A stretch of 64,000 nt of DNA, from the NCBI RefSeq assembly GCF_003018255.1, contig NZ_CP027440.1; one strand, given 5' to 3'. The position numbers were made by a program, and so were the translations under genes. Positions 21,945 through 25,528 of this stretch are shown piece after piece. The DNA is from Escherichia coli. Its GTDB lineage: Bacteria > Pseudomonadota > Gammaproteobacteria > Enterobacterales > Enterobacteriaceae. Under the pieces are notes generated by a model. It was not told where the DNA came from. It did not search any database and saw nothing but the letters and a program-made list of their open reading frames with translations. Every line of letters begins with the position of its first letter. The stretch's first letter is position 1.

Positions 21945-21994
21945 AGAAAGGACTGACGAATGCCCGTTCGCATCCGTCAGTATTGCAGGACGGA

Positions 21995-22676: not shown

Positions 22677-23504
22677 GTGGCGCGGATAAACCGTATTTCG
22701 ATCACGCTCTGTGCTTTACTTTTTACCACCCTGCCTTTAACGCCTATGGCCCATGCTTCAAAGCAAGCCAGGGAGAGTTCTGCTACTACTCATATCACCA
22801 AAAAAGCAGATAAAAAGAAAAGCACGGCAACCACCAAAAAGACCCAGAAAGCCAGCCAGAAAACAGCGAAAAAAGCCGCCAGTAAAAGTACGACCAAAAG
22901 CAAAACCGCTTCTTCCGTTAAAAAATCTTCCATTACCGCTTCTAAAAACGCCAAAACTCGCAGCAAACATGCCGTCAATAAAACGGCCTCAGCCAACTTT
23001 ACCGAAAAGTGTACCAAACGTAAGGGCTATAAATCGCATTGTGTGAAAGTCAAAAATGCCGCGTCAGGAACCCTTGCCGACGCGCACAAAGCGAAGGTGC
23101 AAAAAGCCACGAAAGTGGCAATGAATAAACTGATGCAACAAATTGGTAAGCCATATCGTTGGGGCGGCAGCTCACCGCGTACCGGTTTTGATTGCAGCGG
23201 CCTGGTTTATTACGCTTATAAAGATTTGGTGAAAATTCGTATTCCGCGTACGGCGAATGAAATGTATCACCTGCGTGATGCAGCACCTATCGAACGTAGT
23301 GAACTGAAAAACGGCGACCTGGTCTTCTTCCGTACTCAGGGACGCGGTACAGCCGATCATGTCGGCGTGTATGTCGGCAACGGCAAATTTATTCAGTCAC
23401 CGCGCACGGGCCAAGAAATTCAAATCACTTCTCTCAGTGAAGACTACTGGCAGCGCCACTATGTTGGCGCTCGTCGGGTAATGACCCCAAAAACACTTCG
23501 CTAA
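22677..23504 (+). CDS. mepH: peptidoglycan DD-endopeptidase, NlpC/P60 family
   Basis: ORF from GTG at 22677 (275 aa) with signal peptide, Lys/Thr/Ser-rich linker and C-terminal NlpC/P60 domain (DCSGLVYYAY...H); exact start uncertain by a few codons. Confidence 0.88.
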   Translation: MARINRISITLCALLFTTLPLTPMAHASKQARESSATTHITKKADKKKSTATTKKTQKASQKTAKKAASKSTTKSKTASSVKKSSITASKNAKTRSKHAVNKTASANFTEKCTKRKGYKSHCVKVKNAASGTLADAHKAKVQKATKVAMNKLMQQIGKPYRWGGSSPRTGFDCSGLVYYAYKDLVKIRIPRTANEMYHLRDAAPIERSELKNGDLVFFRTQGRGTADHVGVYVGNGKFIQSPRTGQEIQITSLSEDYWQRHYVGARRVMTPKTLR

Positions 23505-23510
23505 AACTTT

Positions 23511-23548
23511 ACCCTGTTGTTACGGCAACAGGGTAAGTTCATCTTTTG
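23511..23548 (+). terminator. intrinsic terminator downstream of mepH
   Basis: ACCCTGTTG/CAACAGGGT stem followed by a T-rich tract. Confidence 0.6.
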
Positions 23549-23631
23549 TCTCACCTTTTAATTTGCTACCCTATCCATACGCACAATAAGGCTATTGTAC
23601 GTATGCAAATTAATAATAAAGGAGAGTAGCA

Positions 23632-24213
23632 ATGTCATTCGAATTACCTGCACTACCATATGCTAAAGATGCTCTGGCACCGCACATTTCTGCGGAAACC
23701 ATCGAGTATCACTATGGCAAGCATCATCAGACTTATGTCACTAACCTGAACAACCTGATTAAAGGTACCGCGTTTGAAGGTAAATCACTGGAAGAGATTA
23801 TTCGCAGCTCTGAAGGTGGCGTATTCAACAACGCAGCTCAGGTCTGGAACCATACTTTCTACTGGAACTGCCTGGCACCGAACGCGGGTGGCGAACCGAC
23901 TGGAAAAGTCGCTGAAGCTATCGCCGCATCTTTTGGCAGCTTTGCCGATTTCAAAGCACAGTTTACTGATGCAGCAATCAAAAACTTTGGTTCTGGCTGG
24001 ACCTGGCTGGTGAAAAACAGCGATGGCAAACTGGCTATCGTTTCAACCTCTAACGCGGGTACTCCGCTGACCACCGATGCGACTCCGCTGCTGACCGTTG
24101 ATGTCTGGGAACACGCTTATTACATCGACTATCGCAATGCACGTCCTGGCTATCTGGAGCACTTCTGGGCGCTGGTGAACTGGGAATTCGTAGCGAAAAA
24201 TCTCGCTGCATAA
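23632..24213 (+). CDS. sodB: Fe superoxide dismutase
   Basis: 193 aa [39 protein letters not shown]...; recognised as SodB; RBS AAAGGAGAG upstream. Confidence 0.95.
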
Positions 24214-24231
24214 TAACTGATGGCAAATGCA

Positions 24232-24300
24232 ACATTGCCTGATGCACTTCGCTTACCATGCCAACTCGGATGAAGCGTTAACACCGCATCCGGCAAGATA
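24232..24300. repeat. degenerate REP-like palindromic element
   Basis: Reverse complement reads tGCCGGATGCGGtGTtAACGCtTcATCCG..., resembling the REP consensus GCCGGATGCGGCGTGAACGCCTTATCCGGCCTAC with several mismatches. Confidence 0.45.
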
Positions 24301-24324
24301 AATCGCACGTTGCCAGCAACTGTA

Positions 24325-24353
24325 ACGCAGAAGGTTATCCTTCTGCGTTTTTG
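24325..24353 (+). terminator. intrinsic terminator of sodB
   Basis: ACGCAGAAGG-TTAT-CCTTCTGCGT hairpin followed by TTTTTG. Confidence 0.8.
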
Positions 24354-24358
24354 TGTAA

Positions 24359-25528
24359 TTAGCTGTTGGCAACGCAAACTGCCTCAGGTTGTTTTCTGGC
24401 TGACATAAACACCAGCAATAATGCCAGTCCCGCGACAATCGCCCCCATCACCGGCACAAAGCTGTATCCCAGCCCAGCGGAAATTACCGCACCACCAGCA
24501 GCAGCTCCCAGCGCATTTCCAAGATTAAAGGCACCAATATTGACTGATGAAGACAGACCAGGCGCTTCACTGGCGACACGCATCACGCGCATCTGTAACG
24601 GCGGTACGACCGCAAAGGTTGCAGCTCCCCACACCACCATGCTAATAGCTGCGCCGAACTCATTGCGGGCCAGGAACGGGATTGCTAGCATAATCACCAT
24701 CAGCAGCAACAAAAAGCCTTTCAACGTGCCGTTAACTGAACGATCTGCCAGTTTGCCGCCGAGATAGTTACCGATAGAGAATCCGACACCAATCAGCACC
24801 AGCATTGCCGTAACGAACACCGGCGTTGCGTGGGTAATACTTTGCAGTACCGGAGAGATATAGGTGTAGAGGGTAAACATTGCACCAGCTCCCAGTACCG
24901 TCGTCAGCAATGCAGACAGCACCTGCGGACGCATTAATACCGCCAGCTCTTTTTTCACTTCAGGTCGCGCCCCTGCGCCACCTTTAGGTAATGAGAAGAA
25001 CAGACTTACCATTGAAATCACGCCCAGCCCCGCCGTTGCCAGAAATGACATCCGCCAGCCGATGGTTTCGCCCAACCAGGTCGCTGCCGGAACGCCACCG
25101 ATATTTGCCAGGGTTAACCCCATAAACATAGTGGCAACTGCGCTGGCCTGTTTATGTTTTGGCACCACGCTTGCGGCCACAACTGAACCCAAACCAAAAA
25201 ATGCTCCGTGATTCAGGCTGGTCAAAATGCGTGAAAGCATCAGCGTCATATAATCCGGCGCGATGGCGGAAAGTACGTTGCCGAGCGTGAAAATCGCCAT
25301 CAGGAAAATCAACGCACTGCGGCGAGCACGATGAGAAAGTAGAAGCGTCATCAGCGGCGCGCCAACCATTACGCCAACTGCATAGGCACTGATTAACATT
25401 CCGGCAGCGGGAATCGAGACATCCACACCGCGCGCAATGACGGGCAATAAGCCCATTGGCGAGAACTCCGTTGTCCCGATACCAAACGCGCCAATCGCCA
25501 GCGCCAGCAACGGATAGTTAATTTTCAT
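24359..25528 (-). CDS. ydhP: MFS transporter (DHA1 family)
   Basis: 389 aa 12-TM-type ORF MKINYPLLALAIGAFGIGTTEFSPMGLLPV...; recognised as YdhP. Confidence 0.88.
   Translation of the reverse strand: MKINYPLLALAIGAFGIGTTEFSPMGLLPVIARGVDVSIPAAGMLISAYAVGVMVGAPLMTLLLSHRARRSALIFLMAIFTLGNVLSAIAPDYMTLMLSRILTSLNHGAFFGLGSVVAASVVPKHKQASAVATMFMGLTLANIGGVPAATWLGETIGWRMSFLATAGLGVISMVSLFFSLPKGGAGARPEVKKELAVLMRPQVLSALLTTVLGAGAMFTLYTYISPVLQSITHATPVFVTAMLVLIGVGFSIGNYLGGKLADRSVNGTLKGFLLLLMVIMLAIPFLARNEFGAAISMVVWGAATFAVVPPLQMRVMRVASEAPGLSSSVNIGAFNLGNALGAAAGGAVISAGLGYSFVPVMGAIVAGLALLLVFMSARKQPEAVCVANS

Follow-up and report, generated by a model that had tools for sequence, protein, structure and literature searches.

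A decayed pair of inverted REP units between sodB and ydhP in Escherichia coli

Introduction

The genes sodB and ydhP of Escherichia coli converge on a short intergenic spacer, in which an initial annotation had recognised a single degenerate REP-like element. The locus raises the question of what this element is, how it came to lie between a stop codon and a transcription terminator, and whether it has any bearing on sodB mRNA. These questions are addressed here for a 64,000-nucleotide stretch of E. coli DNA, referred to below as the window.

Taken as a whole, the evidence makes it highly probable that the spacer holds a decayed BIME, inserted in the Escherichia lineage at the REP128 site and persisting as a near-neutral relic. 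An element of this kind at this catalogued locus is already known, REPv128ab having been listed for sodB (PMC10100675). The new points are that the element is a pair of units and not a single one, that its decayed form is the common allele of E. coli and the K-12 form a minority, that the block carrying it is specific to Escherichia, and that its TnpA-REP and IS621 motifs are gone. The locus matters little by itself; it illustrates that a badly decayed REP can be recognised from sequence alone, and it offers what may be a compact example of the birth of a BIME between a stop codon and a terminator, its expansion, its collapse by recombination between units and its decay.

The sodB–ydhP spacer

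In the window the spacer measures 145 nt and ends in an intrinsic terminator (Table 1). The sodB stop codon, TAA at 24211–24213, is directly followed by a second TAA, and the stretch from there to the terminator is made up of the REP pair and its single-copy flanks. The terminator has an 11-bp stem, AACGCAGAAGG/CCTTCTGCGTT at 24324–24349, with the loop TTAT, and continues into TTTTTG; the stop codon of ydhP lies 9 nt past the stem. The initial annotation had placed its element upstream of an intrinsic sodB terminator, and this 11-bp stem with its T-run, downstream of the REP pair, agrees with that placement. The sequence of the terminator is unchanged in every sampled E. coli allele and is conserved across Enterobacteriaceae. 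A T-to-G change at 24355, directly past the T-run, is seen in the window alone among nine sampled short alleles. The gene context is widely shared, with sodB and ydhP annotated under the match in K-12 and in 5,425 of 5,426 complete E. coli genomes.

Table 1. Positions of the features discussed, numbered along the window
Feature	Position	Strand	Basis
sodB CDS (Fe superoxide dismutase)	23632–24213	+	ORF list; RefSeq annotations
Escherichia-lineage block, ~105–110 nt	24214–24323	+	Comparison with related genera
Flanking stem, 5′ half (UG.UGGCAA.UGC)	24218–24230	+	Predicted fold
Left REP unit, short-Z type, head to tail, TGCCTGATGCACTTCGCTTACCATGCCAAC	24236–24265	+	24/29 to published short-Z
Right REP unit, Y type, TGCCGGATGCGGTGTTAACGCTTCATCCGAGTTGG	24261–24295	−	25/34 ungapped, 25/29 local versus published Y
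Flanking stem, 3′ half (GCA..UUGCCA.CA)	24305–24318	+	Predicted fold
sodB intrinsic terminator	24324–24354	+	Terminator scan; cross-genus conservation
ydhP (MFS transporter), convergent with sodB	24359–25528	−	ORF list; annotations

Two observations concern the other end of sodB. The sodB leader and start codon, at 23557–23661, give a sub-threshold Rfam match to RF02775 (SodB 5′UTR thermometer), with 31.4 bits where the gathering score is 98. A strong terminator-like hairpin with a 13-bp stem (23508–23537) directly follows mepH (22677–23504), ahead of the sodB promoter region.

Two inverted REP units

The 145-nt spacer was searched by local alignment with the three REP sequences, of Y and Z types including short Z, that are printed in the Methods of PMC11208160. 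The Y-type sequence matches on the minus strand with a score of 38 (25/29 identical, TGCCGGATGCGGTGTTAACGCTTCATCCG) and the short-Z sequence on the plus strand with a score of 33 (24/29 identical, 24237–24265, GCCTGATGCACTTCGCTTACCATGCCAAC). The top scores among 439 other 145-nt tiles of the window were 24 (Y) and 25 (short Z), and none of 200 shuffled versions of the whole window, with dinucleotides preserved, equalled either match in ungapped scans. Alignment to a REP consensus, by which the initial annotation proposed that its reading be checked, is thus significant for both types, with all tiles and shuffles falling below. Scanning the 64 kb with the published sequences revealed no further REP-like match at 62% identity or more. 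A consensus search allowing up to three mismatches returned no match in the window, because the element is too decayed for it.

A permissive search of complete E. coli genomes with the 110-nt block (24214–24323) found a median of at least 32 places per genome, and at least 11 in the lowest case. When the REP pair was removed and the two flanks were joined, the median fell to one place per genome; the repeated part of the block is therefore its REP core. One extra place that was inspected, in the djlC–hscC spacer of a plasmid-like record, holds a REP-like palindrome, GCCGGATGCAGCGTTTACGCCGCATCCGGC.

By its alignments, the stretch 24236–24295 is assigned as two inverted REP units, tail to tail, forming a decayed BIME without a linker. 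Its organisation is that of a BIME, with a Z unit on the plus strand and a Y unit on the minus strand, and its position is extragenic, between the stop codons of two convergent genes. The initial annotation had read the reverse complement of the stretch as REP-like; this holds for the right two thirds (24261–24295) and fails for the left third (24237–24265), where a second unit lies in forward orientation. The proposed kinship with REPs accordingly stands, and the proposed single element gives way to an inverted pair. Indeed, the alignments, the shuffles, the multi-copy core and the canonical REPs that K-12 carries at the orthologous site bear out the presence of a degenerate REP between sodB and ydhP, and the same evidence refutes a chance palindrome unrelated to REPs, which has nothing in its favour except the number of mismatches to the consensus and to which we assign virtually zero probability.

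The annotation of the K-12 element as REP128 was checked through PMC10100675; the RefSeq feature table of K-12 shows no REP features at all over 49 kb.

Decay of the units and of their mobility motifs

The two units of the window share a 5-nt tail (24261–24265), hence the zero linker, and carry 5 (left) and 9 (right) mismatches. The tail of the left unit reads CCAAC and not CCTAC, which leaves GTTG on the minus strand in place of the GTAG foot. The GTAG foot of the right unit is gone as well, the plus strand reading CAAC/CCAA at this point. Folded alone, the left unit has lost its own hairpin (−1.7 kcal/mol, where the K-12 and consensus units reach about −13), and the right unit, with its basal 7-bp stem retained, attains −8.2 kcal/mol, canonical units lying at −16 to −21. 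The stem-loop with a conserved bulge that characterises each REP unit is lacking in the window and present in the K-12 allele. Since both unit hairpins are weak or lost here and those of K-12 are intact, the window pair is regarded as a degenerate member of the family by descent.

These changes reach the motifs on which mobility depends. The GTAG motif is essential for E. coli TnpA-REP, which tolerates no GTAG mutation (PMC8266576). Both GTAG feet are lost in the window allele.

IS621, an insertion sequence specific for REPs, belongs to the IS110 family and uses a bridge-RNA recombinase. Its published natural target is the REP-borne ATCAGGCCTAC, of 11 nt with the core CT (PMC11208160). The equivalent in the window, ACCATGCCAAC, has three mismatches to this target and the core CA instead of CT. 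Judging from the lost motifs, the window pair is probably no longer a substrate for either TnpA-REP/RAYT or IS621. A copy of IS621 is present at this locus in E. coli K99B (NZ_CM135133.1, 1790–3075), inside the canonical left REP of a four-REP allele of the sodB–ydhP spacer. Its junction reads ATCAGGCCT^CTAC, in agreement with the published target and the CT core, and corresponds approximately to window positions 24258–24262.

Variation among E. coli strains is concentrated in the same part of the spacer. Across nine sampled short alleles, the 31-nt terminator is invariant, each flank has 2 variable sites and the 60-nt pair has 8, so that variability in the spacer is greatest in the REP part. 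A G-to-A change at 24246, found in the window alone among these nine alleles, breaks a pair of the stem formed between the two units.

Alleles and origin of the block

A survey of 5,426 complete E. coli genomes distinguishes three forms of the spacer that differ by whole REP units. The short decayed pair, with a spacer of 145 nt, was counted by the identity of the best place in each genome to the 110-nt block of the window: about 594 genomes carry it at 95% identity or more, and 3,148, including O157, at 90–95%. A spacer of 234 nt marks the four-REP allele, which occurs in 1,350 genomes; the K-12 type has a spacer of 161 nt and occurs in about 357. The decayed short pair is thus the majority form, at ~69% of all genomes surveyed, and the 76-nt core of the window itself is present in 376. 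The K-12 form accounts for roughly 7%; in other words, the reference form, REP128, is a minority allele and most E. coli carry a worn-out pair from which the motifs used by the REP transposase and by IS621 have disappeared.

The K-12 element, REP128 (REPv128a,b), occupies the same site as the window pair, between the same flanks and before the same terminator, and has the same arrangement of a Z-type unit on the plus strand and a Y-type unit on the minus strand, tail to tail. It consists of GCCTGAAGCGCTACGCTTATCAGGCCTAC (28/29), a 13-nt linker and GTAGGTCGGATAAGGCACTCGCCGCATCCGGCA, that is, of canonical short-Z and Y units that are near the consensus and keep their CTAC/GTAG feet, whereas the window pair has overlapping tails and no linker. 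The two elements also appear to differ in descent. The right unit of the window agrees best with unit 4 of the four-REP allele (31/34); it shares 27/34 with the right unit of Escherichia whittamii and 24/35 with the K-12 Y unit. On these identities it is assigned as the orthologue of four-REP unit 4 and of the E. whittamii right unit, not of the K-12 Y unit, and would derive from a different, older unit than the Y unit of REP128. The left unit matches equally well, at 24–25/29, a plain short-Z unit and the predicted recombinant of units 1 and 3.

The origin of the block was sought in an outgroup scan of 115 loci, which included one further Escherichia species, E. whittamii. In Salmonella arizonae, several Citrobacter, Enterobacter, Trabulsiella and Leclercia, the conserved terminator ACGCAGAAGG..CCTTCTGCGTTTT follows the sodB stop codon after 5–12 nt, with no REP between them. 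The terminator stands directly after the stop codon and REPs are missing in these related genera, and the block was thus acquired by insertion within the Escherichia lineage. E. whittamii has the block too, and in it the same decayed right unit comes after a long-Z unit; what is said here of the ancestral state in the genus relies on this one species, the sole Escherichia outgroup.

We infer from these comparisons that, in the Escherichia lineage, a REP pair was inserted behind the sodB stop codon and ahead of the terminator, and that the locus later diversified in E. coli through gains and losses of REP units and through point mutation. An old pair, of a long-Z and a decayed Y unit, would be ancestral. 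The four-REP allele would have originated when a fresh canonical pair was gained upstream of this old one, and the K-12 allele would then derive from it by a deletion that joined the two Y units across their common CCGCATCCG. The short allele may have arisen either by deletion or recombination between the Z units (1 and 3) of the four-REP allele or by simple decay of a short-Z unit.

The manner of insertion admits a different account, in which the whole ~105-nt block moved as a MITE-like unit that ends in its own inverted repeats, produced a target-site duplication and had the REP pair as its cargo. Relative to a Citrobacter-like empty site, the block is bracketed by the 5-nt direct repeat AACTG (24216–24220 and 24318–24322), and its flanks hold the inverted repeat TGGCAA/TTGCCA (24221–24226 and 24310–24315). 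However, a repeat of 5 nt easily arises by chance when its boundaries can be freely chosen, the inverted repeat of the flanks is only partly kept in E. whittamii, and the flanks have a median of one place in E. coli genomes, where they are single copy. We regard this account as exceedingly improbable and retain the insertion of a REP pair.

In Kluyvera ascorbata (two loci), the first 60 nt past the sodB stop codon hold a different hairpin, AACCCGGC...GCCGGGTT. This unrelated hairpin is inserted between the stop codon and the terminator, which suggests that palindromic insertions land there recurrently.

Predicted RNA fold and possible function

The minimum-free-energy fold of 24211–24358 has −49.4 kcal/mol, with z = −4.75 relative to shuffles. 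In this prediction the two units pair with each other in one imperfect hairpin of −18.7 kcal/mol (−34.7 for the K-12 pair), which is enclosed by the stem that the flanks form, and the terminator hairpin follows downstream. The same architecture is predicted for eight other alleles and for E. whittamii. No compensatory changes were found among the alleles; the changes are one-sided, converting G-C to G-U or a mismatch to a pair. The strong z value and the retention of the fold in all alleles would also fit a maintained RNA structure.

If transcription stops at the terminator, the REP pair would be transcribed within the 3′UTR of sodB mRNA, and the hairpin between the units (about −19 kcal/mol, some half as stable as its K-12 counterpart) would stand directly upstream of the terminator hairpin. 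The latter is expected to form the mature 3′ end of sodB mRNA; the 3′-end (Term-seq) supplements of an eLife 2021 study hold no sodB entry. In this position the pair could at most act as a second, weak barrier to 3′-to-5′ exonucleases or slightly modulate read-through from convergent ydhP. Liang, Rudd and Deutscher reportedly described REPs, in 2015, as translation brakes when the hairpin lies within about 15 nt of the stop codon; in the window the REP pair begins at 24236, at a distance of 22 nt from the end of the stop codon (24213).

The initial annotation had added that decayed REP copies can affect the 3′-end stability of highly expressed mRNAs such as that of sodB, a suggestion that would carry general REP lore over to this locus. 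A stronger version would make the pair a working 3′UTR regulator similar to REP325 of yjdMN. The pair would then block 3′-to-5′ exonucleases and cause partial termination, thereby measurably raising the level of sodB and perhaps ydhP mRNA, and the alleles would tune sodB expression between strains. Its place in the 3′UTR upstream of the terminator is suited to such a role, and the composite hairpin is predicted to be stable and is retained in all alleles. In other operons, REPs stabilise the upstream mRNA and attenuate read-through (PMC10100675; bioRxiv 10.64898/2026.03.23.713779), and a correlation of REPs between convergent genes with higher expression of both has been described in the same preprint (bioRxiv 10.64898/2026.03.23.713779). 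Against this, a 3′ hairpin is already supplied by the strong and invariant terminator, sodB is expressed in related genera that lack the element, and the window units are far weaker than canonical ones and form the most variable part of the region. Moreover, the effect is carried by the more canonical REPs, and terminal REPs are not linked to longer half-lives (bioRxiv 10.64898/2026.03.23.713779). A working regulator is thus unlikely, and we argue that any effect of the REP pair on sodB mRNA would be small.

A related proposal is that the three common alleles set different stabilities of sodB, and perhaps ydhP, mRNA, and act as a strain-level expression dial maintained by selection. We consider such a dial quite improbable. 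The alleles are natural variants that can be used for testing the effects of REPs on mRNA stability.

Small RNAs derived from 3′UTRs usually come from a structured 3′UTR that closes in a terminator hairpin, and the sodB 3′UTR has this layout; a small RNA or sponge might accordingly be processed from sodB mRNA. In a scan of 23400–24700, however, no Rfam family was found in the spacer even at E = 10, and a literature search found no mention of a sodB 3′UTR RNA. The sequence is also missing from related genera, and whole REP units vary between strains. There is, in our estimate, next to no chance that such an RNA is produced.

Positive supercoils accumulate between convergent genes, and a role of the pair at the DNA level would be to shape supercoiling there as a site for binding or cleavage by DNA gyrase, IHF or DNA polymerase I. 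BIMEs of some classes are reported to bind these proteins. Such activities belong to BIMEs of a particular build that includes linker motifs, whereas the units of the window are decayed and abut without a linker, and no IHF-like ATCAA..TT motif was seen in the stretch. A model REP was moreover found to have no chromosome-organising role (bioRxiv 10.64898/2026.03.23.713779), and we judge a DNA-level role very improbable.

A near-neutral relic remains the most likely reading of the pair. It would be under little or no selective constraint, because relatives do without the element, E. coli strains vary freely in it, and variability is highest in this part of the spacer.

Comparison with known systems

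The window pair shares with the REP/BIME family of Enterobacteriaceae (Y, Z1 and Z2) its sequence, its location in a spacer between convergent genes, its inverted pairing and its multi-copy relatives. It departs from the family in the left unit, where the GTAG foot and the bulged hairpin are absent, and in the right unit, where both are weakened. As in REPINs, the REP pairs mobilised by RAYTs (Bertels and Rainey, PMC3116915), two inverted REPs form one long hairpin; unlike REPINs, the window pair bears no signs of recent mobility, and the feet needed by E. coli TnpA-REP are mutated.

With REP325 of yjdMN, the window pair has in common that a REP in the 3′UTR would in principle be able to block decay or read-through. 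REP325 has several canonical units, lies between tandem genes and is supported by experiment as a dual terminator and stabiliser (bioRxiv 10.64898/2026.03.23.713779), whereas the element of the window is a decayed pair with a strong intrinsic terminator next to it and a convergent gene opposite.

A REP-like hairpin is also present in the lhr–grxD spacer, at approximately 21953–21980, where it reads CTGACGAATGC ccgttc GCATCCGTCAG. This site is known in the literature as REPt127 for grxD, and the hairpin of the window differs from that of K-12 by a single G-to-A change, which disrupts one pair of its stem.
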